A stretch of DNA of 64,000 nt from Escherichia coli (lineage in GTDB: Bacteria > Pseudomonadota > Gammaproteobacteria > Enterobacterales > Enterobacteriaceae): NCBI RefSeq assembly GCF_050320075.1, contig NZ_CP190018.1; one strand, written 5' to 3'. The translations under genes were made by a program, and so were the position numbers. The notes below the pieces were generated by a model. It had not been told where the DNA came from. It saw only the letters and a list, made by a program, of their open reading frames with translations, and searched no databases. This document shows, piece by piece, positions 1,524 through 57,135 of the stretch. How positions within the stretch are numbered: position 1 is the stretch's first letter; each line of letters starts with the position of its first letter.

Positions 1524-4500
1524 TTATTTCTCCTCAGCACCTTCAGTATCTGCAGGAACGGCGTTAATTGTCACAGTCACTGGTTTCATTTCATACCCTC
1601 CATATGTCAAAGAGTTGAATGTGAATGTGTATGTACCTGGCTTGTTGGTACTAAATGTACGCGTGATTTTCCCGCTCGCGAAATGGTCATTTTTCGACGG
1701 CAGGAACTGATAATCCGCCTCTGTCACCCCTTCCGGAGCCTCAATGTCGACCCACATGGTTCCTCCTACGGGGTTGACACCCGACATCAGAGTAACCGTC
1801 AGTGTTGCAGTAGTCTTCCCGTCCGCCACCAGAGAATCTACACGCTCTGGAGATGCAGCGAGCTCCGCGTTTTTATCATCCGCGACGAATTTAGATTCGG
1901 CAGTTTTCGTCGATTCCTGACCGTCGGCCTGTTCCACTTTCGCCGTGAGTGTATATGTCGCTGCGACAGTGGTCGTGGCGGTGAAAATAGCCTGTCCTTG
2001 CTCATTCGTTGTCGCCGTCCCATCGGGATCCAGAGCTAAATTTGCCGGGCTAGCAGTCAGCGTCACCTCGCTATCTTTCAACAGGTTGTTATTGGCATCA
2101 GTCACCGTAACTTTATACGTCTGTTTGGCTTTGCCATCCGCCAGTGCATAGTTGCCAATCACCTCAATACCGGAGACGGTTGCGGTCGCCTTATCGGCCA
2201 CAAACGTTATAGTCTGCGCATCCGAAGGCTGGTCATTTCCTGCCGATGCCGTGATCTCATAGGTTCCGGCAGTCACGGAAACCACCTGCAACTCTGCTTT
2301 CCCCTCATCGTTGGCTTTCACCCAGACATTATCGCCAGTAAGCGGCTTGACACCCCGGGGCAGATTAAAGGTCACCAGAGTGCCTGGAACAGGGTTACCG
2401 TTTTTATCCTCAACGGTCGCCGTCAGCGTAAAGGCATCTTTGCCGTTTGCCACTTTTTGAACGGCGGTGTCAACCTGCAGGTTTGCCTGACCGGTGCTGG
2501 CATCCGCGTTGAATTTCACCGTGACCGTCTTCTGAGAGTTTTTCACCGCGGCCGCGATTTCAAGTTCCCCTGCAACGGTTGATATCAACTCAATATCCGC
2601 TTTACCTGCCGCATTGGTTGTTACTGTATTCCCCGTCTTGCTAGTCACACCCTGCGGTAAAGTCAGCGTAACTTCTTGCCCCTGCAACGGGTTACCATAG
2701 CTGTCCACGACGGTCAGGGTTATCTGGTTAGCAGACTGTCCATTAGCCAGTTGGTTATTAACCTTCACTGTCATATCACGAATCTCAGCCTGAGAAGCGT
2801 CCCCTGCAACGTTCAGCACCAGTGGCTGAGCAACAGCATTTTGGCCGTTCACTCGCGGCATCACAGACAACTGACCCGCGGCAGATCCCAGCGTTAAGGT
2901 CGACACGTAGACCCCATTACCTTTCTCTGTCCAGTTTCCTGCTGAAGGACGCTCACTCCCCGTGCTGGCGGCACCGCTAAACACTGGTGCATCTGGCTTC
3001 AGCCCGGTGACCGGATTCCCGTACGCATCCTTCACGGTGAAGGTGAGTTCCGTCGTCGTTTTAACCGTTGGAGTTTTATTGTCCGCAACAAGCGTAGAAT
3101 TCGCTGATGACATCTCTCCGGCAATAACAGTCAGCTGCGCGGCTTCGGTGGCTGCTGGCTGGCCGTTGAAGAGCGGCATGACACGAAGCTCGCCCGTCTT
3201 TCCGCCTGTAGTTAACGTAGCAACATAGGAACCGTCACCTTTTTCGGTCCAACTGGAAACGGTCGCCCCTTCAGAGGCGGTCCCCGTCAAACTTGCCGAC
3301 AACGAAAGACCACTGATAGCGTTGCCATGTGCATCTTTCGCCACCAACGTCACGGTTGTGCTTTCGCCGGCTTTTACGTGATCTTCCGCGACAGAGACTT
3401 TCGACTGGTTTGAAGATAACGCATCAGCCACCACGGTTACTTTTGCCGCATTTGCTGCCGCATCCTGTCCATTTAGCTTCGGCATAACTTCTAATTCACC
3501 CGCCGTAGAGCCGAGAGTAATCTGCGCAGTCCACGTCCCATCACCATTATTTGTCCAGCCAGATGCCGTAGAACCAACAGCAGCGGCACCCGCTAATGAC
3601 GGCGCTTCCGGCGTGAGGCTGGTCACAGGGTTGTCATTGGCATCTTTTGTCGACCAGATTGCCGTAAGCGTACCGCCGACCACCGGTTTATCAGGATTCA
3701 GGGTGATGGACGAATGTGCTGCATCAAGCGGCCCGGCAACAAACTTCAGCGTTTGTTGTAATGTGCCCAGCTGATACTGCTCGCTGAAGGCGCGCACAAC
3801 AACGTTTCCGGCACGGGTCGAAGAAACCGTGGCGCTGTAAACCCCTGGTTTTATTTCCGAAATGGCACCAACGGTAACACCATTAGTGTCTTGCGGAACA
3901 AGTCGCAGGCGGCTGGCTTCTCCCGTCACCGGATTACCCTCGGAGTCCACCGCAGTCAGCGTCAGCGTGTAGGCTTGCTGACCATCAGCAACCACGTCAC
4001 CTGACGGCTCGTTAGCGCTCAGGGTGGAGTTTGCCACATCCATCATCGTGGCCCGCAGTTCTGCAGTGACGGTTTTGCTCATGCCATCAACGCTAACAGT
4101 AATCGTTGCCTCACCTGACTGCGTTCCGGTCGTAAAGACAGACTGGTACACCCCTGCTTCAGTTTCGGTGAACTCACCCAGTGTGGGCTGTGCCTGTGAT
4201 TTAGTGGCCTTCAGGGTACGAGTCACAATATTTCCAGCCGGTTTGAAGGTTAGTTCAGTCTTGATCTGCTCCTTCATGCCCGTGACTGGCTGACCCTCGG
4301 CGTCGCGCATAGACAGCACCAGCGGCTTTTGCTCATTACCGTTAGCAAGCATTTGAATACGGCTCTGACCGTCAAGCGTTAACGCCGTGCGATCGGCGCT
4401 CATACCAGCTCCGGTAATAACCACTTCTGTCTGCACACGTTTCGAGGCATTGCCTTTGTTATCGTAGGCAACTGCTGAAATCGCATAATAATTGTCTTTG

Positions 4501-5774
4501 CCTGGACGATAAGCCGGGAGCGTTACTTGCCACTGACTACCCTGACCGGTAATTTTGCCACCTTCAGCCAGTAATGACGGCGCTTCCCACTGCACATTTT
4601 TCAGTCCGTGTGTTGCTTTGCTGACCACAAGCCCCAGGGAAACCGTCTGACCGCCCTTACCTTCAATACGCTCAGGCAGAGCAATACGGATCACTTCAGA
4701 TTTGCGGTACTCAAGAACGATGTTGTTATTACGCTCAACCAGGTCATAGCGGCTGCCTGCCAGCATTCGACGCTCGCGAATGCTGTCTGTATCGAGTTGT
4801 TTTTGCAGAGGTTCGCCAATCCGATAATTAACTTCCAAGCCAAAGCGAGTGTCATTCTCACCACTCTTGCCCTGCTTATGCCCGGCACTCAGGGTCAGAA
4901 GAGGCACTGGCGTGTAATTCACTTCAGCGGTAATCGCATGTGGATCTTTCTGGCGTTTATCTTTGCCAAACAGCCCGACTTCATCGCCATAATACTGCTC
5001 ATACATCAGGCTTGCGCCAAGCTGCGGCCAGGCGGGTAAATAGCCCTCAGCACGAATATCCCAGCCATTCGCCGGGCGTTCCTGATAATCCTCAACATCC
5101 GGCGATTTTTTCCAGCCAGAAGCCCGGATATAACCATTGGCGCTCAATTTCAAATAATCACGCCAGTATTCCGCACCAACACCAATGCGGGTATGACTAC
5201 GGGATAAATCATGGTCGATAAAGGTGTTCACCCCCGCCATCCAGTCATTTCCTGAAAAATGACGCCAGCCAAAACCAATATTTGACTGAGTACGATCGTC
5301 GGTACGATGTATTGCCCCCTGAGTGAACAACATATTTGTCGGTGTATCATAAATCGGATAAAGCATTTCCAGCGAAGAATCCTTCAGCGAGAAATCTTTA
5401 TCGACATTCAGTTTGACGCGCGCAGTACCGTATTTCCCGAGCCACTCCTGAATTTCCTGGTTAGCTTTAGCGGTGGCCATTCCGGTAATAAAGTTACGTG
5501 TCGCATCGCTATCTGGCTGACTGCTTAAAAATGTCCCGGCATTTGCGGCAAACGACGCGACATTTTTCTCCACATTATTATCAGCAGCTACTGTGGTATT
5601 TTCCATGCTCAAACGTGGCTGAACCGCATGCTGCGCACGTGCTGCCATTACTGGCGTAAAGGTGACAGCGAGTGGAAAAAGAACCTGAACAGAGATATTT
5701 GCCCACGCCACGCAGCGGGCCAGAACTGAATAACGAAATCGTGGTTGTTTATGACCTGTTTTATAACGTGACAT
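1524..5774 (-). CDS. eaeH: intimin/invasin-like outer-membrane adhesin with repeated Big (bacterial Ig-like) domains, 1416 aa
   Basis: 1416-aa ORF; N-terminal signal and beta-barrel region, then many ~90-aa Thr/Val/Ala-rich Ig-like repeats; length and position match full-length EaeH/FdeC. Confidence 0.9.
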   Translation of the reverse strand: MSRYKTGHKQPRFRYSVLARCVAWANISVQVLFPLAVTFTPVMAARAQHAVQPRLSMENTTVAADNNVEKNVASFAANAGTFLSSQPDSDATRNFITGMATAKANQEIQEWLGKYGTARVKLNVDKDFSLKDSSLEMLYPIYDTPTNMLFTQGAIHRTDDRTQSNIGFGWRHFSGNDWMAGVNTFIDHDLSRSHTRIGVGAEYWRDYLKLSANGYIRASGWKKSPDVEDYQERPANGWDIRAEGYLPAWPQLGASLMYEQYYGDEVGLFGKDKRQKDPHAITAEVNYTPVPLLTLSAGHKQGKSGENDTRFGLEVNYRIGEPLQKQLDTDSIRERRMLAGSRYDLVERNNNIVLEYRKSEVIRIALPERIEGKGGQTVSLGLVVSKATHGLKNVQWEAPSLLAEGGKITGQGSQWQVTLPAYRPGKDNYYAISAVAYDNKGNASKRVQTEVVITGAGMSADRTALTLDGQSRIQMLANGNEQKPLVLSMRDAEGQPVTGMKEQIKTELTFKPAGNIVTRTLKATKSQAQPTLGEFTETEAGVYQSVFTTGTQSGEATITVSVDGMSKTVTAELRATMMDVANSTLSANEPSGDVVADGQQAYTLTLTAVDSEGNPVTGEASRLRLVPQDTNGVTVGAISEIKPGVYSATVSSTRAGNVVVRAFSEQYQLGTLQQTLKFVAGPLDAAHSSITLNPDKPVVGGTLTAIWSTKDANDNPVTSLTPEAPSLAGAAAVGSTASGWTNNGDGTWTAQITLGSTAGELEVMPKLNGQDAAANAAKVTVVADALSSNQSKVSVAEDHVKAGESTTVTLVAKDAHGNAISGLSLSASLTGTASEGATVSSWTEKGDGSYVATLTTGGKTGELRVMPLFNGQPAATEAAQLTVIAGEMSSANSTLVADNKTPTVKTTTELTFTVKDAYGNPVTGLKPDAPVFSGAASTGSERPSAGNWTEKGNGVYVSTLTLGSAAGQLSVMPRVNGQNAVAQPLVLNVAGDASQAEIRDMTVKVNNQLANGQSANQITLTVVDSYGNPLQGQEVTLTLPQGVTSKTGNTVTTNAAGKADIELISTVAGELEIAAAVKNSQKTVTVKFNADASTGQANLQVDTAVQKVANGKDAFTLTATVEDKNGNPVPGTLVTFNLPRGVKPLTGDNVWVKANDEGKAELQVVSVTAGTYEITASAGNDQPSDAQTITFVADKATATVSGIEVIGNYALADGKAKQTYKVTVTDANNNLLKDSEVTLTASPANLALDPDGTATTNEQGQAIFTATTTVAATYTLTAKVEQADGQESTKTAESKFVADDKNAELAASPERVDSLVADGKTTATLTVTLMSGVNPVGGTMWVDIEAPEGVTEADYQFLPSKNDHFASGKITRTFSTNKPGTYTFTFNSLTYGGYEMKPVTVTINAVPADTEGAEEK

Positions 5775-12650: not shown

Positions 12651-13121
12651 ATATCTATTACTCTCCCGAGTGTAAAACTATCAAACCAATGAGTAACCGA
12701 TACAGCCTCGCAAATTCTTTCAGATAATTAACCCGTCACTGCGGCACGTTCTCTCATAAGGCGTGCCTGCTGTGTAATCCAGTATGGATCCAGCATAGTT
12801 GACGGCTTAATAGACTCAATTCCTTTCCCAGGTTACCAACAACGATATCTTGTATAACACCCCAGAAGATACGACATTATGATGAGATGAGGTATGCTCC
12901 TCAGCGCCAATCAACGCCAGGGCTGGGCCAGTTTTGAGATCAGACTCATTCCCGGACTGACTTCAGGCGACATATATCAATGACGTTGGGGCAATAAAAG
13001 ATAGCCGATGTAATACATCTATTCAAATTTGTGATACATGTCAAAAAATTGGTTGACCAAACTCGTTATTTATATAAGGGCACTTACGAAGTGCACTCTT
13101 TTTTAAAGCGAGGAAGTACCA

Positions 13122-13223
13122 ATGAAAGAGAATAAAGTACAACAAATCAGTCATAAACTGATTAATATCGTTGTTTTTGTCGCAATTGTAGAATACGCCT
13201 ATTTATTTCTCCATTTCTATTAA
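13122..13223 (+). CDS. ykgR: small membrane protein, 33 aa (MKENKVQQISHKLINIVVFVAIVEYAYLFLHFY)
   Basis: Short ORF with RBS AGGAAG, hydrophobic C-terminal half; conserved position upstream of ykgM; a degenerate copy occurs at 32044-32160. Confidence 0.6.
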   Translation: MKENKVQQISHKLINIVVFVAIVEYAYLFLHFY

Positions 13224-13543
13224 TAACGGCAATAAACTGTTCACTTCAGTGATATTAAAAAATATGCATCCTCTCCCTTTTTTGTAAGTAATTATTATAT
13301 CCGTGGGAGAGGAATACACGCTGTCCGGCAATCAATCAAACTGCGATAAATCATCGGCCAGTAAAATGGAGATAGCCTCCATTCTCGAAAAATTCATACT
13401 CTCAGCGAAACCATCACTCATCAAGGCGTTTATGGGAGCGTCGCCAATGGCTGCTAACAATGCCAGACTTCCCCGTTGCCGAAATTCCACATACCACAAA
13501 TGGTCACAGGGATTGGGTGTTGAAATGATCCGGATGAGCATGT

Positions 13544-13570
13544 ATCTTTATGGTTATGTTATAACATAAC
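13544..13570 (+). promoter_or_regulatory. Zur box (zinc-uptake-regulator operator) in the ykgM promoter
   Basis: Palindrome GGTTATGTTATAACATAACAGG immediately upstream of the ykgM start; the ykgM-ykgO operon is a known Zur target. Confidence 0.75.
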
Positions 13571-13581
13571 AGGTAAAAATG

Positions 13582-13845
13582 ATGAAGCCCAATATCCATC
13601 CTGAGTATCGTACTGTGGTGTTCCACGACACCAGTGTTGATGAGTACTTTAAAATCGGCTCGACTATCAAAACAGACCGTGAGATTGAGCTGGATGGAGT
13701 AACGTATCCGTACGTGACAATTGATGTCTCTTCTAAATCGCACCCGTTCTATACAGGGAAGCTGAGAACAGTGGCATCAGAAGGAAATGTTGCACGATTC
13801 ACCCAACGTTTTGGTCGTTTTGTTAGCACGAAAAAGGGGGCATGA
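13582..13845 (+). CDS. ykgM: ribosomal protein L31 paralogue (type B, zinc-independent)
   Basis: [27 protein letters not shown]...; 87 aa; lacks the CxxC zinc ribbon. Confidence 0.95.
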
Positions 13846-13985
13846 TGAAAGTCCTTAACTCTCTGCGTACCGCAAAAGAACGCCATCCAGACTGTCAGAT
13901 TGTGAAGCGAAAAGGACGGCTATATGTGATTTGTAAATCTAATCCACGTTTTAAGGCCGTTCAGGGTCGTAAGAAAAAACGTTGA
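13845..13985 (+). CDS. ykgO: ribosomal protein L36 paralogue
   Basis: [46 protein letters not shown], 46 aa; start overlaps the ykgM stop (ATGATGA); not in the ORF track because it is short. Confidence 0.95.
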
Positions 13986-14036
13986 TTCAAAATTCGACGA
14001 ATTAACGATATTTGTCTGATTAATAATCAGACCGGA

Positions 14037-14075
14037 TTAATGTTGGTGTATTTATTACACCAGCATTAATTTTCC
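14037..14075 (+). terminator. rho-independent terminator after ykgM-ykgO
   Basis: Hairpin TTAATGTTGGTGTA / TACACCAGCATTAA followed by a T-run. Confidence 0.6.
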
Positions 14076-14999
14076 TGGGGATGTATCTTCCTGTTCATTT
14101 AAAGTCAACTGCCTGACGTTTCTCTCCGAATATTCCATTATATTAATGTTGACTTGTTGACCAGGTGCGCCCTGTATGCTGGCATCAACTCTCTTTTAGA
14201 CTGAACACGCCACTCAGTTTCCTCCCTTTGCGACGCAGCCTGCATTTACACTCAAACGGTTAAGATGATAAATGTGGTAAATCTGTTGGTACTGACATAA
14301 AAACGTTTACGCCACAGGAACGGCCTGATCCACCGGTAACCCCATCGCCGACGTTCGAGTGCCAGTTAGAGTAACGCGCACAGATGACTGAATGCAGTGC
14401 CCTGGCAAAGAGGCCATCGTTCCTGTGACAACTGGCAGTCTTCGTTTAACTTCACTTAATTTGGCTCTTAGGGGGCTTACCGGACAGATGACGTACTTAC
14501 ACCTGTTTAATTTTTCATCACTTATTGGGATGAACCCCCATAACCATTTTGTGCGGCATGTTAATCCATTAAAACACCTTACTGATTGGCAAATCATCTT
14601 TAATTATGACTCATGATAGTTTTATATTCTATTTCTTATCATTTAAACTTGTTTTTTTACTAGTCCATTACACAACACATTAAGACTATTCCTAACACCT
14701 CAGGGCAAAGTTCCTGGCTAATATAAAATGCAAGTAAGAATTGAACGTTATATTGCCAATAACCTTATGAAACTGAATGTCTTTTTCTTCTTATCAAAAA
14801 AGCAATATTTTCATTTTTTGTAAATATTGACTTAACCATGGAATTCCTTTTCTGTTCACATATTGACACTCATCAGGAAAAAAACATAAATTTAAACCTA
14901 ATCGAAATAATTAAAACTTAATCTCGTTTAACCTATATTGATATGTGCTACGTATCTTATTTACTTCCGATTTACTAAAGAAACTGAATGTACCTGTAA

Positions 15000-23771: not shown

Positions 23772-24461
23772 ATGAGCAACCAAGGCGAATACCCCGAAGA
23801 TAATCGGGTTGGGAAGCACGAGCCGCACGATTTTAGTTTGACCCGTCGCGATCTGATTAAAGTCAGCGCCGCAACGGCGGCGACCGCCGTGGTTTATCCT
23901 CATTCTACGCTTGCGGCAAGCGTTCCGGCAGCTACACCCGCGCCAGAGATAATGCCCCTGACACTTAAGGTGAACGGCAAAACCGAGCAGTTGGACGTTG
24001 ATACCCGAACCACGCTACTGGACGCTTTGCGTGAAAATCTGCATCTGATCGGTACCAAGAAAGGTTGCGATCACGGACAGTGCGGAGCCTGTACCGTGCT
24101 GGTCAATGGTCGAAGGCTTAATGCCTGCCTGACGCTTGCAGTCATGCATCAGGGGGCCGAGATCACCACCATTGAAGGCCTGGGTTCACCAGAGAATCTT
24201 CACCCCATGCAGGCGGCCTTTATCAAGCATGATGGCTTCCAGTGCGGCTACTGCACCTCCGGGCAAATTTGCTCATCAGTAGCGGTGCTAAAAGAGATTC
24301 AGGACGGCATTCCCAGTCACGTCACGGTCGATTTGGTTTCCCCTCCAGAAAGAACGGCCGATGAGATCCGTGAACGTATGAGCGGCAACATCTGTCGCTG
24401 TGGTGCATACGCTAACATCCTTGCCGCCATTGAAGACGCTGCGGGGGAGATAAAATCATGA
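23772..24461 (+). CDS. paoA: periplasmic aldehyde oxidoreductase, [2Fe-2S] iron-sulfur subunit with Tat signal
   Basis: 229 aa; twin-arginine motif ([18 protein letters not shown]), two Cys clusters ([11 protein letters not shown] and CGYCTSG...CRCG). Confidence 0.95.
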
Positions 24462-27205
24462 AGGCGTTTACCTATGAACGTGTGAACACCCCGGCCGAGG
24501 CGGCACTTAGCGCTCAGCGCGTACCTGGCGCAAAATTTATCGCTGGCGGGACCAATCTGCTGGACCTGATGAAGCTGGAAATTGAAACGCCAACCCACCT
24601 TATCGATGTGAACGGGCTCGGGCTCGATAAGATTGAAGTGACCGACGCGGGTGGGCTGCGCATCGGCGCACTGGTACGGAACACCGACCTGGCGGCTCAC
24701 GAGCGCGTGCGTCGTGATTACGCGGTACTCTCCCGCGCCCTGCTCGCTGGCGCGTCTGGTCAGTTACGCAATCAGGCAACCACCGCAGGTAATCTGCTCC
24801 AGCGCACGCGCTGCCCCTATTTTTACGACACCAATCAGCCCTGCAATAAGCGCCTGCCCGGGAGCGGCTGCGCGGCACTTGAAGGCTTTAGCCGTCAGCA
24901 CGCGGTGGTAGGCGTAAGCGAAGCCTGCATTGCCACCCATCCGAGCGATATGGCGGTCGCAATGCGGTTGCTGGATGCGGTGGTGGAAACCATCACGCCG
25001 GAGGGAAAGACTCGCAGTATCACACTGGCTGATTTTTATCACCCTCCGGGAAAAACGCCGCACATTGAAACCGCCCTGCTTCCCGGTGAGCTTATCGTTG
25101 CGGTGACGTTACCTCCGCCGCTCGGCGGAAAACATATCTACCGCAAGGTGCGCGATCGCGCCTCCTACGCCTTTGCCCTGGTATCGGTCGCGGCGATTAT
25201 TCAGCCTGACGGCAGCGGGCGCGTCGCGCTGGGCGTACTGGCTGTCATTACCGCCAGTAACGCCGGGGCACTCGGCAAAGGCGACAAAAACACCGCCAGG
25301 CTGTTAGGCGGCCCCACTATTGAACACTATCATCAGGCCATTGCGCTGGTAGTGGCCGAGACCTTCGAACAGGCGCGAGCGGCGGCCTCGCTGGTGCAGG
25401 CGCACTATCGCCGTAATAAAGGAGCTTACTCCCTGGCGGACGAGAAACAGGCCGTCAGTCAGCCGCCGGAAGACACGCCCGATAAAAATGTTGGTGACTT
25501 TGACGGGGCTTTCACCTCCGCTGCGGTGAAGATTGATGCTACCTACACGACCCCGGACCAGAGCCATATGGCGATGGAGCCGCATGCCTCGATGGCCGTC
25601 TGGGATGGAAATAAGCTTACCCTCTGGACCTCAAATCAGATGATTGACTGGTGCCGCACCGATCTGGCAAAAACGCTGAAAGTGCCCGTGGAGAATGTGC
25701 GTATTATCTCCCCGTATATCGGCGGAGGGTTTGGCGGCAAGCTGTTCCTGAGAAGCGATGCGCTGCTGGCGGCCCTCGCCGCCCGTGCGGTGAAACGTCC
25801 GGTTAAAGTGATGCTCCCCCGCCCCACTATTCCCAATAACACCACGCACCGCCCCGCCACCCTTCAGCACTTGCGTATCGGTACTGACCAGAGCGGGAAA
25901 ATCACCGCTATCTCACATGAAAGCTGGTCCGGAAACCTGCCCGGCGGCACGCCGGAAACGGCGGTACAGCAAAGCGAATTTCTTTACGCAGGGGCGAATC
26001 GTCATACCGGCCTGCGGCTCGCCATGCTTGATTTGCCGGAAGGGAACGCCATGCGTGCGCCCGGCGAAGCCCCCGGTCTGATGGCGCTCGAAATCGCGAT
26101 CGATGAACTGGCGGAAAAAGCGGGCATCGATCCCGTCGAGTTTCGCATCCTGAATGACACTCAGGTTGACCCCGCCGATCCGACGCGCCGCTTCTCTCGC
26201 CGTCAGCTTATCGAGTGCTTGCGCACCGGAGCGGATAAATTTGGCTGGAAGCAGCGCAACGCCACACCCGGACAGGTACGCGACGGGGAGTGGCTAGTCG
26301 GCCACGGTGTTGCGGCGGGCTTTCGCAATAATCTGCTGGAAAAATCGGGTGCGTGGGTTCACCTGGAGCAAAACGGCACCGTTACCGTGGAAACGGACAT
26401 GACCGATATTGGCACTGGCAGCTACACCATTCTGGCCCAGACGGCAGCGGAAATGCTTGGCGTACCGCTGGAGCAGGTTGCGGTTCACCTCGGCGATTCC
26501 AGTTTCCCGGTTTCTGCGGGGTCTGGTGGACAATGGGGCGCGAATACCTCCACCTCCGGCGTTTACGCCGCCTGTGTGAAGCTTCGCGAAATGATTGCCT
26601 CGGCAGTCGGGTTTGATCCTGAGCAGTCGCAGTTTGCCGACGGCAAGATTACCAACGGTACCCGAAGCGCCACGCTACATGAGGCCACCGCAGGCGGCAG
26701 ACTGACAGCGGAAGAGAGCATTGAATTCGGAATACTGAGCAAGGAGTACCAGCAATCGACCTTTGCCGGGCATTTTGTGGAGGTCGGCGTGCATAGCGCG
26801 ACGGGAGAAGTTCGGGTCCGGCGTATGCTCGCCGTGTGCGCAGCGGGGCGCATTCTGAATCCGAAAACTGCACGCAGCCAGGTCATTGGCGCGATGACTA
26901 TGGGCATGGGCGCGGCACTGATGGAGGAGCTGGCGGTAGATGACCGTTTGGGCTACTTCGTTAATCACGATATGGCGGGGTATGAAGTGCCGGTTCATGC
27001 GGATATCCCAAAACAGGAGGTGATTTTCCTGGATGATACCGACCCCATCTCCTCCCCGATGAAGGCCAAAGGTGTCGGTGAGCTGGGCCTGTGCGGCGTG
27101 AGCGCGGCTATCGCCAACGCGGTGTATAACGCCACCGGTATTCGGGTACGGGATTATCCCATCACTCTGGATAAGCTGCTCGATAAGCTGCCGGATGTGG
27201 TTTAA
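24458..27205 (+). CDS. aldehyde oxidoreductase FAD subunit (PaoB) fused in frame to the molybdopterin subunit (PaoC); apparent internal deletion
   Basis: Single 915-aa ORF: the N-terminal ~258 aa are a CO-dehydrogenase-flavoprotein-type FAD domain ([13 protein letters not shown]), continuing without stop at ...DGSGRVALG|[11 protein letters not shown]... into a molybdopterin-binding large subunit that lacks its first ~75 residues. Confidence 0.8.
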
Positions 27206-31823: not shown

Positions 31824-32043
31824 ACGTTAACAACGACCGACTCTTCACTGTGCAAAATTGTGTCAGGTAGTCCCTCTGCGTTCAATTCCAGGGTCTGCTT
31901 TGAGCGAGAAAGAGGGGACTATCCAGCAATGGAGATCACCCAAAAGAAAAAACCACCTGGCTCCCTCGACAACCTTCATCCGGGCATTTAGCCTCAATCA
32001 ACATTTTTATATCTGTCAGGTTACTTCATTATGAAAACTGATC

Positions 32044-32270
32044 ATCATCGTTGTTTTTGTTGCAATAGTAGAATACGCGTATTTATTCCTCCATCTCTAT
32101 TAATAACGGCAATAAACTGTTCACTTCACTGATATTTAAAATATGTATCCTTTTCAAGCTGTTCAGCGGCGTAAGAAAAAGTATTAATTATGAATTCGAT
32201 GATTTAACCATATCTGTCTGATTGGTAATCATCCGTGATTAATGCTGGTCTATTGATTACGCCAGAACCC
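32044..32270 (+). repeat. degenerate second copy of the ykgR 3' region joined directly to a ykgO 3' end-like segment
   Basis: 32044-32160 aligns by eye (roughly 80 percent) with 13155-13270, and 32170-32270 with 13951-14065 (encodes ...AVQRRKKKY* versus ykgO ...AVQGRKKKR*); the ykgM/ykgO body is absent between them. Confidence 0.7.
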
Positions 32271-33177
32271 TCTCTAGCTTATTCACCGCCGCCACATACT
32301 TCGCCGGATTTTTATCTTTAAGCACCGCCAGATTGCGTTGCTTCCAGCGAATAGCCGGAAGATGCTGAATTTCAGGATAGCGATACCGCGACCAGTCAGG
32401 GCTGTTTTGCTTAAAACTGAGCAAGAACTCGCGATCCAGATCCGTAAGATGTGACTTCAACGCCTGCGGCAGCAAAGTCGTTACTGACAGAAGCGATTCC
32501 AGCGACGTTTCCTGTTGCGTCATCCCTGAAAATTCCTGCGCGTACAACGTGGCGATCCGCTCTGTATCCCAGTTTGGAGCCAGCAACTCGGCGATGGGGC
32601 GGGGATGGCCTGCCAGATAACAAAGAAAACCGTCAAAGATCTCCCGCATCAGTCCCGGTTTCTCCAGCATATTCAGCACATCAAACAGATCGCGCGGGTG
32701 CTGACGATCAAGCGCAGCGCAGATTTTACCGCCATAAAGATCCGCCAGCGAGACGACACTCATGGTGGTGAAGCCATACTCCATTTCCACACGTTCGCAC
32801 ACAGGCATTTCTGCCGGAGGCAACAACAGCCCGCGCCAGACCGGGCTAACCTCGATCTTAATCTTTGCATCAGCGGTATTCACAATGATGCGCTTTTCAT
32901 CCGCTTTATTTTCCTGCCGAATCGCGGTGATCCCCGGTCTGCCGTTCAGCGATGCAGTAATCCTCTTCAAAGCGTCGTTGATAGCCGCCAAATCAGTATC
33001 GCGATCCGCAAAGCTCTTGTACGCCAGATCAATATCCACCGACAGACGGGGAAAATCCTGCACAAACAAATTGATTGCGGTGCCGCCTTTCAACGCGAAA
33101 CAGGACTCCTTCGCCACATACGGCAGAGCGGCCATCAACAGTTTGACCTGCCGGGCATAGCTATCACGCAGATCCAT
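32257..33177 (-). CDS. AbiEii/AbiGii-family nucleotidyltransferase toxin (type IV TA / abortive infection)
   Basis: 306 aa; NTase motifs (ALKGGTAINLF, DIDL); overlaps the upstream antitoxin gene by 14 nt. Confidence 0.85.
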   Translation of the reverse strand: MDLRDSYARQVKLLMAALPYVAKESCFALKGGTAINLFVQDFPRLSVDIDLAYKSFADRDTDLAAINDALKRITASLNGRPGITAIRQENKADEKRIIVNTADAKIKIEVSPVWRGLLLPPAEMPVCERVEMEYGFTTMSVVSLADLYGGKICAALDRQHPRDLFDVLNMLEKPGLMREIFDGFLCYLAGHPRPIAELLAPNWDTERIATLYAQEFSGMTQQETSLESLLSVTTLLPQALKSHLTDLDREFLLSFKQNSPDWSRYRYPEIQHLPAIRWKQRNLAVLKDKNPAKYVAAVNKLERVLA

Positions 33178-33967
33178 CTTCGACTCCTTCCGGTTTAAAT
33201 GCGCGTGGAACAGTAATTTGATAATCCGGCTCCAGCCAGCCGCCGGGTATGATTTGCCGCTTTCCCGTACCTGTTTCTATACCGCTTTGATCAATATACT
33301 GAAAATAAGGGTGTCCATTACGCCGGGCAAGGTAAAGCATCACCCGGTTGGTTTTAACCGAATGGCTGGCGCGAAGCAGTGCCTGCAATTTGCGTGGGCT
33401 GAGAAGATTCAACCCCTGAAACAGAGCATCGGCATGTTCGAACGAGATTAACGAAGGAACGCCGCAGGCGATCTCATACGCGGCCAGTTCCGGAACACTG
33501 CCTGCTAACTGGCGGTCGCCAATTTTCAGTTCCGTAGTAAATGGCGTTACATCAGCGGTAAGGCCTGACGTATACAGCGTGACAAACGTTGCGGATTGTT
33601 CAAAGGCAGAAAACCATCCCGGCAGTTTGACGTAAGCCGGAAGCGCGAGCCAGACCTGCGGCTTACCCTGTTCGGTATAGTGCGCATGACCCTGAAGCGC
33701 AAGGCTGGTTAGCCCCGCCACCCGAACAGGCTTTTCCCACTGCGATTGCAGGCAGTAAACCGCATCCACCCAATCCGGTTCACGACCCGTCCGGCAGTAT
33801 ACGCCGTGAGCGATCCGCCTGAGCCAGCCATTCTTCACATAGAGATAAGAGAGCTTACGATCTATGCCGTTGCGGGTAAGCCATGACTGGAGCAGCACCT
33901 GGCCGGGTAGCGTGTGCTGCATCAGCCAGTTTAGATAGTTTGGCAACTGTCGCCTCTGAATAGACAT
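33164..33967 (-). CDS. AbiEi-family antitoxin / transcriptional regulator
   Basis: 267 aa, N-terminal winged-helix-like region; immediately upstream of and overlapping AbiEii. Confidence 0.8.
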   Translation of the reverse strand: MSIQRRQLPNYLNWLMQHTLPGQVLLQSWLTRNGIDRKLSYLYVKNGWLRRIAHGVYCRTGREPDWVDAVYCLQSQWEKPVRVAGLTSLALQGHAHYTEQGKPQVWLALPAYVKLPGWFSAFEQSATFVTLYTSGLTADVTPFTTELKIGDRQLAGSVPELAAYEIACGVPSLISFEHADALFQGLNLLSPRKLQALLRASHSVKTNRVMLYLARRNGHPYFQYIDQSGIETGTGKRQIIPGGWLEPDYQITVPRAFKPEGVEDGSA

Positions 33968-34261
33968 TAGTACAAATATTTAAACCAGTGTAGATTCAGG
34001 GATACGCCACAGCAAGAAATAGTTTACTTATTCCTCATTTTGTCGACTAAAAATCGACATTAAACAAAAAATTCAAACTTAATCACTTTCGGGAAAAATG
34101 TGACAAATATATGCTCGGACTGGTTGCGGGGAGCGTGTAACATGGATACAAATCAAAATTATTGCCAGCCTCACTGATGGATTACTGGTGTCAAGAGCCC
34201 CCCTTCGGGCATGAAACGGCTGGCTAATTCTGTACAGACTGTAATCTAAGGACGATAACGC

Positions 34262-37200
34262 ATGACATATCAGGCAATTTTCACTGGCTGGGATGATCTG
34301 ACGATTGAAGACCTTCTGGTCGCTTACCGGAAAGCAAAAGCCGATAGCTTCTTTGAGAATACATTTCCTGTTGCTATCAAATTTGCCGAGTATGAGCAGG
34401 AATTACTTGAAAACCTGCAAAAACTCTTAGATCTTTTGCAGAGCGAAGATGGATTCAGTAGCAATAAGAAGTTGATTGGCAAATTTCGATTGTTACCGAA
34501 AAAATTAACCACAAAGAAAAAACATGAATCCCAAAATGGACACGTCCACTTTTCTAATCCTAAACGAGCAGCCGACCATTTATTTAATAATTTTGATCTG
34601 ATACCAGAGTTTCGTATTATTGGTGACTTCCCGGTTGATAGTCACATTATCTCTGCACTATGGATTAACATGGTCGGGCATAAATTTGATGCCAGCTTAG
34701 ATAACTGTTGCTATGGCGCGCGGCTAAAGCGTATTCGTAATGATGAATTATTTAGCAATGAGCAGGATAATCCATTCCATATCAGTGCCGTGGGTTCTTT
34801 TAGCCCCTACTTCCAGCCCTACCAAAAATGGCGTGGTGATGGCTTAAAAGCTATACGTGACGAGTTGGAAAAAGATCGTGACATTATCGCCGCCTCACTG
34901 GATTTAAAAAGTTACTATCATTTTATTGATCCACTGGCTATAACCTCTGATGATCTCTATAACACACTAAACATAAAACTGACTGAGGATGAAAAAGCGT
35001 TTACTGCACAGTTAGCAGTATTCTTAAAGCACTGGTCTGACGGCGCAGCGGCATTTGGAAAGAAAATAGCGTACAAAACACCTGTTATTAATGGTGGTCT
35101 GGTCATTGGATTAACAGCCAGTCGGATCATTTCAAATATATTGCTACACCATTGGGATAAATTAGTCATTGAAAAACTATCACCAATTCACTACGGTCGT
35201 TATGTCGATGATATGTTCCTTGTAATACGCGATACAGGGACAATTACTAATAATCACGAATTTATGTTATTGCTGCAAGATAGGCTTGGCAATGATTGCG
35301 TTTATTTGAAAAACGAGCAAAAACAAATATGGCAAATACAGCAGGGCGAGCATTTCCAGGGTAAGACCACCATCCAGTTACAATCCGATAAGCAAAAACT
35401 TTTCGTGCTTCAAGGGAGGGCTGGAATAGACCTGCTCGACAGTATCGAAAAGGAGATCTACGAGCTTTCTAGTGAACACCGCTTGATGCCTTCACCGGAT
35501 CAACTGGAACACTCCACCGCAGCTAAAGTCCTTTCCGCTGCCGGTAGTGTAGGTGAAAATGCCGATACTCTGCGCCGTGCGGATGGATTAACCATTCGTC
35601 GTTTGGGCTGGTCACTGCAATTACGCTACGTTGAAACACTGGCACGAGATCTGCCTCCAAGTGAATGGAAAGAACAGCGGGAAGAGTTTTATCAGTTTGC
35701 CTACAACCATATTCTTAGGGCTGATAATCTATTTGCACATTTTAGTTATCTGCCAAGGCTGCTTGGCTTTGCTATCAGTATGAATGAATGGCAGCACGCG
35801 GAAAAAATTGTACTTAAAGCTTACGAATCCATCAACCTGTTGGCATCGGTGATTACTTCAGGTAAGGAAGTGAATATAAATGGTTGCAAAACTCGAGCAG
35901 TAAATGATCTTTGGCGCTGTATAAAAGGCACATTAAGCTGGCTATTTGTTGATGCAGCGACACGATATTACAGTCCTGACAGATTATTTCTTGATAAACG
36001 TTCAAAGAAAGAAGAGTGCCTTGCGGATACATTTTTTAATCATATTTCACAAAGTCTGACGAATCTAAAGGATTTACTGGATCTTCGCTTTGATTCAGCA
36101 GATTTTTATTTAAAAGCGCCATTGGTAGCTCGAGCTGATTTAGCAAAGGAACCTTATAAACAGATCGTAAAGAGTCAGTCGGCAGAAAAACTTGTTAATC
36201 AGCGTGATAGTAAAAAAGAAGTTAAAATACTGAAATTAATGAGCGACTCATCGCTTATTGATATTGACGTTATTAAGCTATTTTTGAAATCAACCAAGAA
36301 TACCCGACTGGAAAAAGTGGCTAAAGGAAATCGTAAGAACGAAAGTTACCTACCTTACATTTTCCCTACACGTCCTTTAACACCCGCTGAAATATCAGAA
36401 CTGGCCCCCGAATGTGTTGGATTACCCTCCACATCCGACAAAAAACCAGATGAGAGACCGTCCACCATTTGGGCAAAATATACTCAAGCATTACGCGGAG
36501 TATGGATCAAACCGACGTTGCTAGCATCGGAGCAGGACTCAGATGAAGCGACAAAAAAAGCTCGGCCTAAGAAATTCATTCATATTGGCACAGACAGGAA
36601 ACATAAAGTTGTCGTTGCGCTAACCAGCATTAAAACAGAGGAGGACGACTGGGCTAAAATGGCCTGCAATAAATCTAACTTGTCCCGTTCAAGGTACCAG
36701 CGGATTTCTGAACTGGTTAATGCAACATTGAAACTATCTCCTAAACCTGATTATGTTTTATTCCCTGAGCTTTCAATCCCGTTACGCTGGGTTAACAGTA
36801 TTGCTGATCGTTTGAGTTCGGCGGGTATCAGTCTAATTGCGGGAACAGAATACCGCCACTTAGACGATAATCAACTGAAGAGTGAGGCCGTACTTGTCCT
36901 TTCAGATAACAGACTCGGCTATCCAGCGAGTGTCAAAATATGGCAACCCAAGCTGGAACCCGCCGTAGGTGAAGATGAGGCATTATTTTCAATTTATGGT
37001 AAGTCTTGGGATTCGACACTTAATGTTAAACAACGTAAGCCGGTATATATTCATCACGGCGTCAATTTTGGCGTTATGATTTGCTCTGAACTCCAGAATA
37101 GTAAAGCGAGGATCCGTTTTCAGGGCGCACTCGATGCATTAATGGTATTGAGCTGGAATAAAGATCTAGATACGTTTGCATCGTTGATTGAATCAGCAGC

Positions 37201-37471
37201 GCTGGATATTCATGCCTATACTATTTTAGTGAATAACCGAAAATACGGCGATAGTCGCGTACGTTCCCCGGCAAAAGAACCCTTTATGCGTGATATTGCT
37301 CGTGTGAAGGGCGGTGATAATGACTTTGTGGTCGCTGCAACGCTGGATATCGACTCGTTAAGGGCATTTCAGAGCAGGGCAAAACGCTGGCCTAAAGGCG
37401 GCGATAAATTCAAACCGTTACCTGAAGGATTCCAGTTGGCAAAGAACCGCAAAAAGCTACCGCCAAAATAA
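34262..37471 (+). CDS. reverse transcriptase fused to a C-terminal nitrilase (carbon-nitrogen hydrolase) domain; DRT type 1 / UG1-like defence RT
   Basis: 1069 aa. RT motif A ASLDLKSYYHFID, motif B GGLVIGLTASRIISNILL, motif C YGRYVDDMFLV (YxDD). C-terminal domain has nitrilase catalytic-triad contexts FPELSIP (Glu) and GVMICSE (Cys). AT-rich relative to flanks. Confidence 0.85.
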   Translation: MTYQAIFTGWDDLTIEDLLVAYRKAKADSFFENTFPVAIKFAEYEQELLENLQKLLDLLQSEDGFSSNKKLIGKFRLLPKKLTTKKKHESQNGHVHFSNPKRAADHLFNNFDLIPEFRIIGDFPVDSHIISALWINMVGHKFDASLDNCCYGARLKRIRNDELFSNEQDNPFHISAVGSFSPYFQPYQKWRGDGLKAIRDELEKDRDIIAASLDLKSYYHFIDPLAITSDDLYNTLNIKLTEDEKAFTAQLAVFLKHWSDGAAAFGKKIAYKTPVINGGLVIGLTASRIISNILLHHWDKLVIEKLSPIHYGRYVDDMFLVIRDTGTITNNHEFMLLLQDRLGNDCVYLKNEQKQIWQIQQGEHFQGKTTIQLQSDKQKLFVLQGRAGIDLLDSIEKEIYELSSEHRLMPSPDQLEHSTAAKVLSAAGSVGENADTLRRADGLTIRRLGWSLQLRYVETLARDLPPSEWKEQREEFYQFAYNHILRADNLFAHFSYLPRLLGFAISMNEWQHAEKIVLKAYESINLLASVITSGKEVNINGCKTRAVNDLWRCIKGTLSWLFVDAATRYYSPDRLFLDKRSKKEECLADTFFNHISQSLTNLKDLLDLRFDSADFYLKAPLVARADLAKEPYKQIVKSQSAEKLVNQRDSKKEVKILKLMSDSSLIDIDVIKLFLKSTKNTRLEKVAKGNRKNESYLPYIFPTRPLTPAEISELAPECVGLPSTSDKKPDERPSTIWAKYTQALRGVWIKPTLLASEQDSDEATKKARPKKFIHIGTDRKHKVVVALTSIKTEEDDWAKMACNKSNLSRSRYQRISELVNATLKLSPKPDYVLFPELSIPLRWVNSIADRLSSAGISLIAGTEYRHLDDNQLKSEAVLVLSDNRLGYPASVKIWQPKLEPAVGEDEALFSIYGKSWDSTLNVKQRKPVYIHHGVNFGVMICSELQNSKARIRFQGALDALMVLSWNKDLDTFASLIESAALDIHAYTILVNNRKYGDSRVRSPAKEPFMRDIARVKGGDNDFVVAATLDIDSLRAFQSRAKRWPKGGDKFKPLPEGFQLAKNRKKLPPK

Positions 37472-46122: not shown

Positions 46123-47517
46123 TTATGATTTCATTTTATCTGCAATATCTTCTAAGGAATCAAAGAATGCTTTGACAAAGTTGTCTTTATTAACAGTAGT
46201 AAAGTTTTGATTGTAAAATCCTACACATGCAGAAAAAATTGCTCTGCAAGTTAGCTCATTATATTTAGATGAATATAATGGTTCGACTCCACGATACACG
46301 GACCAAGAACCATGAGCTATATCAGACCTAGTCTTATACATTTCCTGAGCCACTCTAGCCCATTTTTTTTCATCTTGATAATAAATAGAAACTAATGAAG
46401 AAACACGACTTACGAAGTTCTTTGTTGTAGATGAATCCTTTTTTTCGCTACTTAGACTAACCAGCCGTTCAAGAGCCGTTGTTAATTTTACTATACGAGA
46501 ACTTTCATCCTTATCCTGTTGTGCGCTACTAAATAAATAGATAGCATCAATTAGCCTGTCTGCAATTACAGAGTTTTCATGAGGTTCTATCGCCAACTCT
46601 ATTAACCGAGAAAGAACTAACCCTAAGTCAGATTTGTAATCATCTTCAAACTTATTCCAAAACTCACCGCTATTGGCTATAGTCCCTTTAGTTGAGTAAT
46701 GATAGTTAAACATTTCGTTTGGTTTCTTGGAAAGATAAAAGCCGTCATAATTTGGGTAAGGATCTGTTGATATACTTAAAAAGTATGGGGAGATATTATA
46801 GTGCACACCAAATAGCTGTAGTATCCCAACCACAAAACATGCAATATTTTTAGCGATTCTCTGCCTACTTAACTTAGAGCGTTTGCTAACAGGGATTTTT
46901 AGGTAGTGTTTATAATGAAATTTATGAGAAGAACAAAATTTCTTAGCTAAATCAAGTTGTTGCTCAGTAAAATCATCACTAATAGTTAAGTGCATTTTTT
47001 CTGCCGATATAATATCAACTCGGCCAATAGACATTATATCTCGTTCCAACCCGTGAGCTAAAATAGGATAATAAAAATCCTCTTCAGACATTTCTCTCCT
47101 TGTTAGTTTTAATGTTTTATTTAGGAGGATAGTACATCCACTCCTGTCGCAACTGCCGTTCTCAACCCAAATATGCATAAACAATATTTTCTTAAGATTA
47201 CTTAAAAATTCATCGGTAGTAACTAGCATTTCTAAGCGATTTGATTTTATAAATCTAGCCGAAATAGCATATAACTTCTCATAAGAGGCATATGATAGAT
47301 GAATTTGAGTTCTAGAAAGATCTGTTCTTCCTTTTATTAGTTCATATGGTGCATCTATGGTCATTCCCAATGAACCAAAATTACCATTATATTCTTTTTT
47401 GTAAAATTCCATAAAATTAGATGAGGATGTTAACTCTTTATTTATTCTAACAGCCTCATCAAGAATAAATTTAAAATCTTTAACGTCTTCCAAACTGGCA
47501 CTCATCATTTTCACCAT
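46123..47517 (-). CDS. uncharacterised 464-aa protein in the P4 psu-int hotspot; C-terminal HEPN-like Rx4H motif; candidate anti-phage effector
   Basis: Strongly AT-rich versus the GC-rich flanking P4 genes; sits between cos/psu and int; C-terminal region contains RSDIAHG (R-x4-H-G, as in HEPN RNases); no Walker or other obvious motif; start overlaps the int 3' end. Confidence 0.7.
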   Translation of the reverse strand: MVKMMSASLEDVKDFKFILDEAVRINKELTSSSNFMEFYKKEYNGNFGSLGMTIDAPYELIKGRTDLSRTQIHLSYASYEKLYAISARFIKSNRLEMLVTTDEFLSNLKKILFMHIWVENGSCDRSGCTILLNKTLKLTRREMSEEDFYYPILAHGLERDIMSIGRVDIISAEKMHLTISDDFTEQQLDLAKKFCSSHKFHYKHYLKIPVSKRSKLSRQRIAKNIACFVVGILQLFGVHYNISPYFLSISTDPYPNYDGFYLSKKPNEMFNYHYSTKGTIANSGEFWNKFEDDYKSDLGLVLSRLIELAIEPHENSVIADRLIDAIYLFSSAQQDKDESSRIVKLTTALERLVSLSSEKKDSSTTKNFVSRVSSLVSIYYQDEKKWARVAQEMYKTRSDIAHGSWSVYRGVEPLYSSKYNELTCRAIFSACVGFYNQNFTTVNKDNFVKAFFDSLEDIADKMKS

Positions 47518-49126: not shown

Positions 49127-49429
49127 CTACGATGCAAGAATCCATACCGATAAGCATCCGATAATTGGGAAAGAAAAATCCAACAAACTTCCCACACCCC
49201 ACGCGCGCGGATCAAAACCGCCCCACCACGGCATATTCATACGCTTGCCATGCCCGAACATTTCAATCCAGCGATATTCTGCCTGGGTGTGTTCACGCGC
49301 AATGAAGAACGTACAACCGGCTATCGCACCGTAAGCCCAGTTTCCGGTAAAAAGACCAATCAGTAGCTGCGCAGCCACAGCACAAAGTGCATGAAGTAAG
49401 GGTGTTATATCCATTTTCATCCTACCCAA
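49127..49429 (-). CDS. hypothetical small membrane protein (100 aa) between the att core and oac
   Basis: ORF with two hydrophobic segments; function unknown. Confidence 0.4.
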   Translation of the reverse strand: MGRMKMDITPLLHALCAVAAQLLIGLFTGNWAYGAIAGCTFFIAREHTQAEYRWIEMFGHGKRMNMPWWGGFDPRAWGVGSLLDFSFPIIGCLSVWILAS

Positions 49430-49885
49430 TAAAACGGGGCGCTCGGCCCATTAATATTATTTAGACGCAAGCGCTGCCTCAATTGCAGATAACATTTGTC
49501 TTAATTCTGCGTTTTCTTCTTCCAGTGCTGTTATTCTGTCGTCTGACTCTCTGGCTACCTGAACAAGCAAGCCAGTAACACCAGAATAATCTACAGTGTA
49601 ATACCGTTCACCTTCTTCACCTAAAGGATGACAAAATCACATAAATAATTTAAAAATCATAGCATTAGATTACTTAATGATTAAATAATAGACTGCGAAA
49701 CGCGACAAAACACAACATATCCAGTCACTATGAATCAACTACTTAGATGGTATTAGTGACCTGTAACAGAGTATTAGCGCAAGGTGATTTTTTGTCTTCT
49801 TGCGCTAATTTTTTGTCAACGCACTGGGTTAGTTGAATTTACAACCATGCTCAGTTTGGTGATCTCTTTAGGTCGATTGTTATGG

Positions 49886-50926
49886 TTATGCTCTGCTTGA
49901 TTCAGTGATTTTGGAATCCTGCATTTTAGTAATCATACCCATAATTTTATGCCTAAGCTTTTCCATTGGGTTTTCGATTAGATAAAAACTTACCGCCCCA
50001 ACTAAGATTGATGCTACCATCGTTGCTATATACATATAGAAACTGATTCCTACGTACCACACACCCATTGCTAGAATCAGGAAGTGCCATAGGTATATAG
50101 AGAAGCTCCATTTACCAATGTAAGACATTAACGGTGTTGACAGAGCCCAAGCAAATACACCTTCTCCATAGCTCATTAGCAGAACAATGAGTCCAAATAT
50201 TGGCGCATAGAAAATAAATTTGTTGAGAACCCATCCATCAGTAAACCCACCAGTTAACTTCCACATAACTTTAGGCAGTGCAATAAGCATTGATACAATA
50301 AAGAACAGGAAGGCTATATCAGACAACTCTTGACCAATTTTAAGGAAATTATCGTGATAGAGAAATGCTGCAATCATTCCGCAAGCAAACAGTGGGAAAT
50401 ACCACATCACCATTCCGCCATACGCACTATCCATCGCAGGGTACAATCCCTGTAGCAATACAGCCAGTGCGAAAATAAGGAATGCCGCTGCTTTTCCATT
50501 GTACACTTTTTGAATTGCGACACCAGCATACGCAAAGAATGGAAGTATGAAGTAGAATTTATACTCAATTGGTATTGTCCAGAAATGAAGCACGGCCTCT
50601 TTCATCGTTATGATTGAGATTGCCGTATTCAAATCAAAATACCCAAAATATGAATACACGAGAACAGCTATTGCGAACACCGGAAGGATTCTCATTGTTC
50701 TTCCAAGGAAATAACTTAAAAGAGACCGCCAGGAAAATCCGGTAGAAATAAATCTACTGGTTAGCAAAAATGCGCTGAGAACAAAGAATATCCAAACGCC
50801 AAACTGTGAACTTCCACCAAGCATAACCTCATACTCATGAAAATATATTCCTGTAGCGTGGGCTATTATTACAAGGAATACCGCTATTGCCCTTAGTCCA
50901 TCAAGAGACTTGATTTTACCTTTCAT
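49886..50926 (-). CDS. acyltransferase-3 family O-antigen acetyltransferase (Oac-like serotype-conversion enzyme)
   Basis: Multi-pass membrane protein with N-terminal LDGLRAIAVFLVIIAH (acyltransferase-3 signature); AT-rich; directly downstream of the tailspike gene; start probably the internal Met. Confidence 0.8.
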   Translation of the reverse strand: MKGKIKSLDGLRAIAVFLVIIAHATGIYFHEYEVMLGGSSQFGVWIFFVLSAFLLTSRFISTGFSWRSLLSYFLGRTMRILPVFAIAVLVYSYFGYFDLNTAISIITMKEAVLHFWTIPIEYKFYFILPFFAYAGVAIQKVYNGKAAAFLIFALAVLLQGLYPAMDSAYGGMVMWYFPLFACGMIAAFLYHDNFLKIGQELSDIAFLFFIVSMLIALPKVMWKLTGGFTDGWVLNKFIFYAPIFGLIVLLMSYGEGVFAWALSTPLMSYIGKWSFSIYLWHFLILAMGVWYVGISFYMYIATMVASILVGAVSFYLIENPMEKLRHKIMGMITKMQDSKITESSRA

Positions 50927-51009
50927 TTCTTTCCCAGATATGGAGTGAACATCTGCGAAAATGTAGCACATTTCAAGGTAAACAAGAAGCGCATCCATGC
51001 GCATTTTCA

Positions 51010-52929: not shown

Positions 52930-53017
52930 TTCATTGCTCCAGACGAATGATATGATGCAACCATGATGTGATTGCATACCGAAATGGTACTATTGAGTAT
53001 TTATCCAGTAGGTTACG

Positions 53018-53311: not shown

Positions 53312-53400
53312 CCATCCGTTACGGAGGATTTATGCACAGAGATATGCTGAATATTGCGTTCTACATATTTGGTTTTTGCACGTTCCTGGTGTTTGCGAAG

Positions 53401-57126: not shown

Positions 57127-57135
57127 GATTACCCC

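Follow-up and report, generated by a model that had tools for sequence, protein, structure and literature searches.

An intact ykgM-ykgO operon behind a perfectly palindromic Zur box in a 64-kb stretch of Escherichia coli DNA

A short region (13544-13985) within a 64-kb stretch of Escherichia coli DNA, hereafter called the window, raises the question of whether it holds an intact operon for two ribosomal-protein paralogues, what controls that operon, and how its second gene is tied to its first. As a whole, the region is best explained as an intact E. coli ykgM-ykgO operon under Zur control, a reading to which we assign a probability of about 95%. The ykgM-ykgO operon and its Zur box are textbook E. 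coli biology, already known and nothing new. The original prediction, which had described the region as ordinary, known biology, is borne out here: the ykgM/ykgO locus is annotated in 5,061 of 5,426 complete E. coli genomes (megablast with positions 13400-14100 as the query; ykgM / ykgO / ykgL). The value of the operon is that of an annotation anchor, which marks conserved E. coli core chromosome at this place and an intact zinc-starvation ribosome switch.

Positions 13400-14100 are a 100% match to E. coli YZLc1-3 (megablast), and the 64-kb window is collinear with the YZLc1-3 chromosome (34,100/34,100 and 33,567/33,582 bases identical), so that the RefSeq annotation can be transferred to it. 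The genes of the locus are as follows.

13122-13223: ykgR (RefSeq annotation)
13582-13845, plus strand: ykgM, type B (zinc-free) L31, 87 amino acids (Pfam, NCBIfam, RefSeq)
13845-13985, plus strand: ykgO, type B L36, 46 amino acids (Pfam, NCBIfam, RefSeq), with an alternative in-frame ATG at 13842
14020-14245, minus strand: ykgL, a frameshifted pseudogene in RefSeq, convergent with ykgO

The list of open reading frames shows the operon as two abutting short frames on the plus strand (13579/13582-13845 and 13842/13845-13985), and the ykgO stop codon ends at position 13985. Two minus-strand frames lying over the operon (13504-13743 and 13749-13886) were set aside as mechanical, RefSeq having no annotation there. 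The zur gene lies outside the 64-kb window. The pseudogene ykgL differs from K-12 by single-base indels (alignment columns 994 and 1079). Independent mobility by way of plasmid copies was also considered and rejected, as the 33 plasmid records that match ykgM-ykgO give no sign of it; the best-matching plasmid rows are mostly E. coli records from laboratory work or cell culture, ~210-240 kb in size and taken as F-prime-type, and one 4.9-Mb record is filed as a plasmid.

The closest characterised counterpart is the K-12 ykgM-ykgO operon (b0296-b4506) with its promoter PL31p, which has the same gene order, proteins, -35 and -10 hexamers, 18-bp Zur box, Shine-Dalgarno sequence and terminator hairpin. 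From 13518 to 13698, the first coding difference in ykgM, the window is base-for-base identical to K-12 MG1655, a span that takes in promoter, operator, Shine-Dalgarno sequence and ykgM start. The four coding differences are all synonymous (three in ykgM, one in ykgO), and YkgM and YkgO are therefore identical to the K-12 proteins, which settles the comparison with the reference genes that had been proposed as a check; one of the four turns GTGATGA into ATGATGA at the gene junction. The remaining differences are a 7-bp indel and scattered SNPs upstream of the promoter and a few SNPs in the terminator stem. The flanks also differ: the window carries an intact 4.25-kb fdeC (inverse autotransporter adhesin; 1524-5774, minus strand), followed by intact aldo/keto reductase, LysR-family, hydrolase and flavin oxidoreductase genes, whereas the equivalent place in K-12 holds only eaeH, ykgA, ykgQ and ykgP pseudogenes and IS3.

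Both gene products are assigned to the type B families by profile searches. YkgM scores 87.1 bits against Pfam PF01197 (Ribosomal_L31; cut-off 27) and 122.9 bits against NCBIfam NF002462, "type B 50S ribosomal protein L31" (cut-off 86), and stays below the cut-off of 70 for the type-A equivalogs NF000612 and NF001809. YkgO scores 68.6 bits against Pfam PF00444 (Ribosomal_L36; cut-off 26.1) and 91 bits against NCBIfam NF002021, "type B 50S ribosomal protein L36" (cut-off 70). YkgM contains no cysteine, compared with four in RpmE, and in the alignment with K-12 RpmE the cysteines of the RpmE "CSCG" and "CSKC" motifs face T/V and S/S. Aligned with K-12 RpmJ, YkgO shows the correspondences C11 to H14, C14 to C17, C27 to C30 and H33 to F36. 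Because we take C11, C14, C27 and H33 of RpmJ to be the zinc ligands of L36, YkgO should be without a complete CCCH zinc site, two of the four ligand positions being changed and two cysteines kept. Residues 1-68 of YkgM are identical to ribosome chain 6i7v_D7 ("50S ribosomal protein L31 type B") and residues 1-45 of YkgO to chain 6i7v_C5 ("L36 2"); YkgM also aligns with bL31B chains in many solved ribosome structures. By its identity to the solved structure 6i7v, YkgM can be taken to be a component of the 50S subunit.

How the two genes are joined calls for closer argument. The start of the L36 paralogue had been predicted to overlap the stop of the L31 paralogue within the heptamer ATGATGA. 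This heptamer is present at 13842-13848, with the ykgM stop codon TGA at 13843-13845, and an overlap therefore stands; its extent is another matter, since the functional overlap is most likely 1 nt (TGATG) and the 4-nt ATGA overlap unlikely. The start codon of ykgO is preceded by a ribosome-binding sequence of its own.

13834-13840, plus strand: Shine-Dalgarno-like AAGGGGG for ykgO, within the last ykgM codons, 4 nt before 13845 and 1 nt before 13842

We place the ykgO start at the second ATG (13845) because several lines of evidence agree on it. RefSeq begins ykgO at this codon, which gives the 1-nt overlap with the ykgM stop; in all homologues aligned, L36p begins MKVL at the aligned ATG, and the codon itself is conserved in K-12, O157:H7, E. 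albertii and a divergent Escherichia; position 13842 is a G in K-12 and O157:H7 (GTGATGA); and the spacing of the Shine-Dalgarno-like sequence suits the second ATG. A purine-rich stretch resembling AAGG(A/G)G is kept in E. albertii, the divergent Escherichia locus L109 and two Moritella loci, and weaker forms (AAGGTAAAG and AAAGGCAAAA) occur in Aliivibrio and Enterovibrio. Across seven L31p-L36p pairs, the spacing ranges from -1 to +6 nt, with -1 (ATGA) in E. albertii, +2 (TGATG or TAATG), and +4 and +6 in Moritella and Enterovibrio.

Tight translational coupling of ykgM and ykgO, as the original prediction had it, is a reasonable inference from this arrangement; our literature search found no report testing it. 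The form that such coupling could take is narrowed by the predicted RNA structure at the junction, which has a minimum free energy of -16.6 kcal/mol and is no more structured than shuffled sequences (z = +1.5). This absence of structure makes coupling through the unmasking of a hidden ribosome-binding site unlikely, so that any coupling would probably proceed by termination and reinitiation. Together with the Shine-Dalgarno sequence that ykgO has of its own, it also means that coupling is not required for translation of ykgO. A possibility to which we give some, though clearly less than even, credence is accordingly that ykgO is translated mainly by independent initiation at that sequence and that the 1-nt overlap reflects compact packing. 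The position of AAGGGGG 4 nt before the ATG at 13845, with an equivalent purine-rich stretch kept in relatives, is consistent with this, as are a ribosome-binding site that the unstructured RNA leaves accessible without upstream translation and the Moritella and Enterovibrio gene pairs without overlap (+4 and +6 nt). What argues against it is that none of the pairs examined has a junction spacing outside -1 to +6 nt, and this is the range of efficient termination-reinitiation in E. coli operons. Termination-reinitiation and independent initiation are not mutually exclusive.

Far less probable is initiation of ykgO at the first ATG (13842), which would produce the 4-nt ATGA overlap and a 47-residue protein beginning MMKVL. 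An in-frame ATG does exist at 13842 in the window and in L109, and the exact 43-mer across the window's junction is common to 1,890 of 5,026 E. coli records; however, K-12 and O157:H7 have GTG at this place, the A at 13842 alters the third position of the ykgM codon for Ala87 without changing the residue, the Shine-Dalgarno-like sequence would be only 1 nt away, and the homologues, the RefSeq entry and the 6i7v chain all begin MKVL. Similarly improbable, in our estimate, is a composite proposal in which ykgO might start at either ATG in the ATGATGA alleles (~38% of E. coli records), and in which the scar near 32 kb, described below, could in addition remain from a second, horizontally acquired ykgMO locus bordering the neighbouring run of mobile elements. 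If the two-ATG start were true, it would imply a minor MMKVL isoform or a shifted L36B/L31B ratio under zinc starvation. We therefore keep the second ATG as the start of ykgO. The same octamer, ATGATGAA, opens both genes (13579-13586 and 13842-13849), giving each two tandem in-frame ATGs; this is probably a coincidence.

Upstream of ykgM, a consensus scan and inspection of the sequence yield the following elements.

13520-13525, plus strand: putative sigma-70 -35 hexamer TTGAAA (consensus scan)
13543-13548, plus strand: putative -10 hexamer TATCTT (consensus scan), ending 4 nt upstream of the Zur box
13553-13570, no strand assigned: Zur operator, the perfect 18-bp palindrome GTTATGTTATAACATAAC (palindrome, skeleton, conservation, K-12 identity)
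13571-13574, plus strand: Shine-Dalgarno-like AGGT for ykgM, 7 nt before the ATG at 13582, its AGG invariant in a six-sequence alignment

The original prediction of a palindromic Zur operator directly upstream of the L31 paralogue thus holds, the palindrome beginning 9 nt inside the region's first position (13544) and ending 11 nt before the ykgM ATG at 13582. No other perfect palindrome of at least 16 bp exists in the 64 kb, and allowing up to 3 mismatches brings up no second copy of the 18-mer in the window (0.03 matches expected from shuffled sequences). Measured against the 18-bp Zur skeleton RxxxYRxxR*YxxYRxxxY, which derives from the Zur-DNA crystal structure (Gilston et al., PMC4219657), it matches all 8 constrained positions and is palindromic at 18/18. 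The skeleton has 231 matches in the window, among which this one alone is fully palindromic, the next best reaching 14/18. Comparison with the Zur consensus, proposed earlier as a check, was clear for this skeleton and only partial for the 23-bp consensus GAAATGTTATA-N-TATAACATTTC: a search of the window for the latter at up to 3 mismatches returned no match, because the site agrees at 17/23 positions and has its centre between two bases, that of the consensus falling on a single base. Even so, 17/23 is the best score in the window, followed by one position at 16 and seven at 15. When the window is aligned with K-12, E. albertii, the divergent Escherichia L109 and two more E. coli strains (six sequences in all), the 18 bp show no change, nor does the AGG after them, and adjacent positions vary. 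By context and by form, we identify GTTATGTTATAACATAAC as the predicted Zur operator of this operon.

The putative promoter, TTGAAA-17 nt-TATCTT, has 9/12 consensus matches, in a scan whose overall yield did not exceed chance (2 sites, with 3.4 expected). The hexamer pair lies at the same place in K-12, in E. albertii (TTGTAA/TATTCT) and in L109 (TTGATA/TATCTT). Since the predicted -10 hexamer is followed 4 nt later by the Zur box, the transcription start, which we infer to lie ~7 nt downstream of that hexamer and predict near 13555, would fall inside the box. For ykgM, the second of the tandem ATGs (13582) is the likely start, because the ATG at 13579 is absent in HCM-28C-2, E. albertii and L109. 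The start codons are fixed at 13582 for ykgM and 13845 for ykgO.

Published experiments on K-12 bear directly on this operator, its identity to the characterised L31p operator being taken from the K-12 genome alignment, as the text of Gilston et al. gives no sequence for that operator. At PL31p, Zur protects ~30 bp, binds with a Kd-app of 0.025e-18 M^2 (EMSA), the tightest of the four E. coli Zur operators, and represses 560-fold in vivo (PMC4219657). The L31p operator is also the most palindromic of the four known E. coli Zur operators (PMC4219657). A chromosomal ykgM-lacZ fusion is nearly silent and becomes ~1000-fold derepressed in a zur mutant or with TPEN (PMC7297116), and L31p represses L31 synthesis via the rpmE 5'UTR (PMC9825181). 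Binding of Zn-Zur and zinc- and zur-dependent repression at the window's operator would carry over from the identical K-12 DNA. The same logic, a Zur-repressed zinc-free paralogue that replaces a zinc-binding protein, is known from B. subtilis ytiA/rpmEB and from bL31B elsewhere (PMC7297116); the C- paralogues of other bacteria have lower sequence identity, and for the B. subtilis Zur box a 9-1-9 repeat has been described.

The 18-mer is not confined to this operon. The exact sequence GTTATGTTATAACATAAC occurs in at least 120 loci of other genomes (one genome per species, 298 Gb), compared with ~4 chance matches by a rough estimate for uniform sequence of 298 Gb. Among the matches listed, nearly all loci belong to alpha-, beta- and gamma-proteobacteria; a single one lies outside the Proteobacteria, in a spirochaete metagenome-assembled genome (L110, Brevinema andersonii). 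For the matches listed, we took the first substantial open reading frame on each side of each box and scanned the resulting 223 frames against Pfam. In this set, cobW/COG0523 was found 29 times, the FUR family and ABC_tran 14 times each, ZnuA and the TonB receptor plug 8 times each, FolE2 and Ribosomal_L31 6 times each, ZinT 4 times, DUF1826 3 times, and ZrgA and Ribosomal_L36 twice each (the last in the first set of frames). By these assignments, the families beside the 18-mer are those of the classic Zur regulon. As a by-product, the exact 18-mer thus marks Zur-regulon genes across alpha-, beta- and gamma-proteobacteria.

The Zur boxes in front of proteobacterial znuA/znuCB, zinT, COG0523 (cobW-like), folE2 and TonB-receptor genes are also close counterparts, the exact 18-mer lying beside these gene families; unlike them, the window's box would control ribosomal-protein paralogues. 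Such an arrangement recurs among the matches listed: by tblastn, an L31 paralogue starts 10-36 nt after the box in seven loci, and in two more an L36 paralogue is the first match after it. The C- paralogues of these relatives vary in their order, the box standing before L31p alone in L033, and the L36 paralogue coming first after it in L018 and L037 (Morganella). In the last two, the L36 paralogue lies 24-31 nt after the box, and tblastn finds no L31 paralogue in the locus.

That the palindrome is no Zur site at all, and instead arose by chance in A/T-rich sequence or serves some other regulator of the Fur family as operator, is an idea that the A/T-rich inverted repeats common to all Fur-family boxes and the modest agreement with the 23-bp consensus might encourage. 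We regard it as extremely improbable, given that no second palindrome of at least 16 bp exists in the 64 kb, that the K-12 operator of identical sequence is bound by Zur in vitro, and that the exact 18-mer flanks ZnuA, ZinT, COG0523, FolE2 and zur genes across the Proteobacteria. Gilston et al. (PMC4219657) also report a central TATA, touched by Zur residue Tyr45, that the Fur box lacks.

Under the preferred reading of an intact, Zur-controlled ykgM-ykgO operon, we propose the following mechanism, in which Zur binding, the size of the repression and ribosome replacement are taken from the literature on identical K-12 DNA. In zinc-replete cells, two Zn-Zur dimers would occupy ~30 bp centred on the palindrome; Zur would thereby cover the predicted transcription start and keep the operon silent, presumably by occluding RNA polymerase. 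When zinc is scarce, Zur would leave, allowing synthesis of one short bicistronic mRNA, which the hairpin and T-run at 14036-14074 would end. This mRNA would yield cysteine-free L31B (YkgM) together with L36B (YkgO), both of which are expected to replace the zinc-binding L31 and L36 in the 50S subunit, and L31B would also repress translation of rpmE. Ribosomes that terminate on ykgM could reinitiate on ykgO at TGATG, aided by the Shine-Dalgarno sequence 4 nt upstream, since the junction is compact in all relatives examined.

The transcript end assumed in this scheme corresponds to a structure downstream of ykgO.

14036-14074, plus strand: probable intrinsic terminator, with a hairpin at 14036-14070 (15-bp stem, 5-nt loop) followed by TTTT

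The underlying inverted repeat is 93% complementary (repeat search), and the RNA of 13983-14085 folds at -33.2 kcal/mol (z = -5.07), none of 200 shuffled sequences folding as well. A simple terminator scan listed none after ykgO; it missed the hairpin at 14036-14074 because no more than 4 T come after a stem rich in A and U. Between the ykgO stop and this main terminator hairpin lies a second, small hairpin, GTCTGATTAATAATCAGAC (14014-14032), detected as a self-inverted BLAST match. An Rfam scan of 12900-14400 gave as its sole match folP RNA, which was rejected as chance-level (20 bits against a gathering score of 99; E = 0.29).

The degenerate copy of the operon that had been predicted at 32 kb is real, and consists merely of a 3' fragment of ykgR joined to the tail and terminator of ykgO.

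32035-32265: 3' end of ykgR joined directly to the ykgO tail with its terminator hairpins

Its first block, 32035-32151, matches 13155-13272 (the last 22 ykgR codons, the stop and 49 nt downstream) at 90% identity, and its second, 32151-32265, matches 13949-14063 (the last ykgO codons and the hairpins) at 77%. The two blocks abut, so that 676 bp (13273-13948) have no counterpart in the remnant, which is without promoter, Zur box, ykgM and most of ykgO. A diverged terminator hairpin is kept, and the small GTCTGATTAATAATCAGAC hairpin is kept in part. Searching the window with YkgM and YkgO (tblastn) found no second protein-coding copy; the sole extra match comprises 10 C-terminal residues of YkgO (32152-32181). 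In RefSeq, the ykgR piece of the remnant is an incomplete pseudogene. As a non-functional scar without Zur box or ykgM, the 32-kb copy should not be annotated as a paralogous operon. Among 5,426 complete E. coli genomes, 909 carry the remnant over at least 80% of the query length. Its two halves have diverged unequally (90% against 77%), and it is flanked by a LysR-family gene and an AbiEii/AbiEi pair, at the point where conserved chromosome yields to defence and mobile-element genes.

A defence cluster (32257-37471) directly follows the remnant.

32257-33177, minus strand: AbiEii (PADLOC, 385 bits)
33164-33946, minus strand: AbiEi (PADLOC, 265 bits)
34262-37471, plus strand: reverse transcriptase-nitrilase fusion, 1,069 amino acids (PADLOC RT_UG5-nitrilase (DRT), 1,034 bits)

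Other parts of the window merit brief description. At 24458-27205, paoB lacks its C-terminus and paoC its N-terminus; their annotation as partial pseudogenes that overlap points to an internal deletion inactivating the periplasmic aldehyde oxidoreductase in this strain. The segment 39143-48685 looks like a P4-like satellite element, for which RefSeq lists a primase-helicase, Icd-like and ash genes, an ogr/Delta-like zinc finger, a polarity suppression protein and a tyrosine integrase; no PADLOC model matches its 460-residue HEPN-domain cargo protein (46123-47508, minus strand). Finally, 49127-64000 is part of a P22-like prophage that continues past the end of the window and encodes a tail-fibre fragment, an acyltransferase, a head-binding protein, Arc, ejection proteins, gp10, gp4, the major capsid protein and the portal protein.
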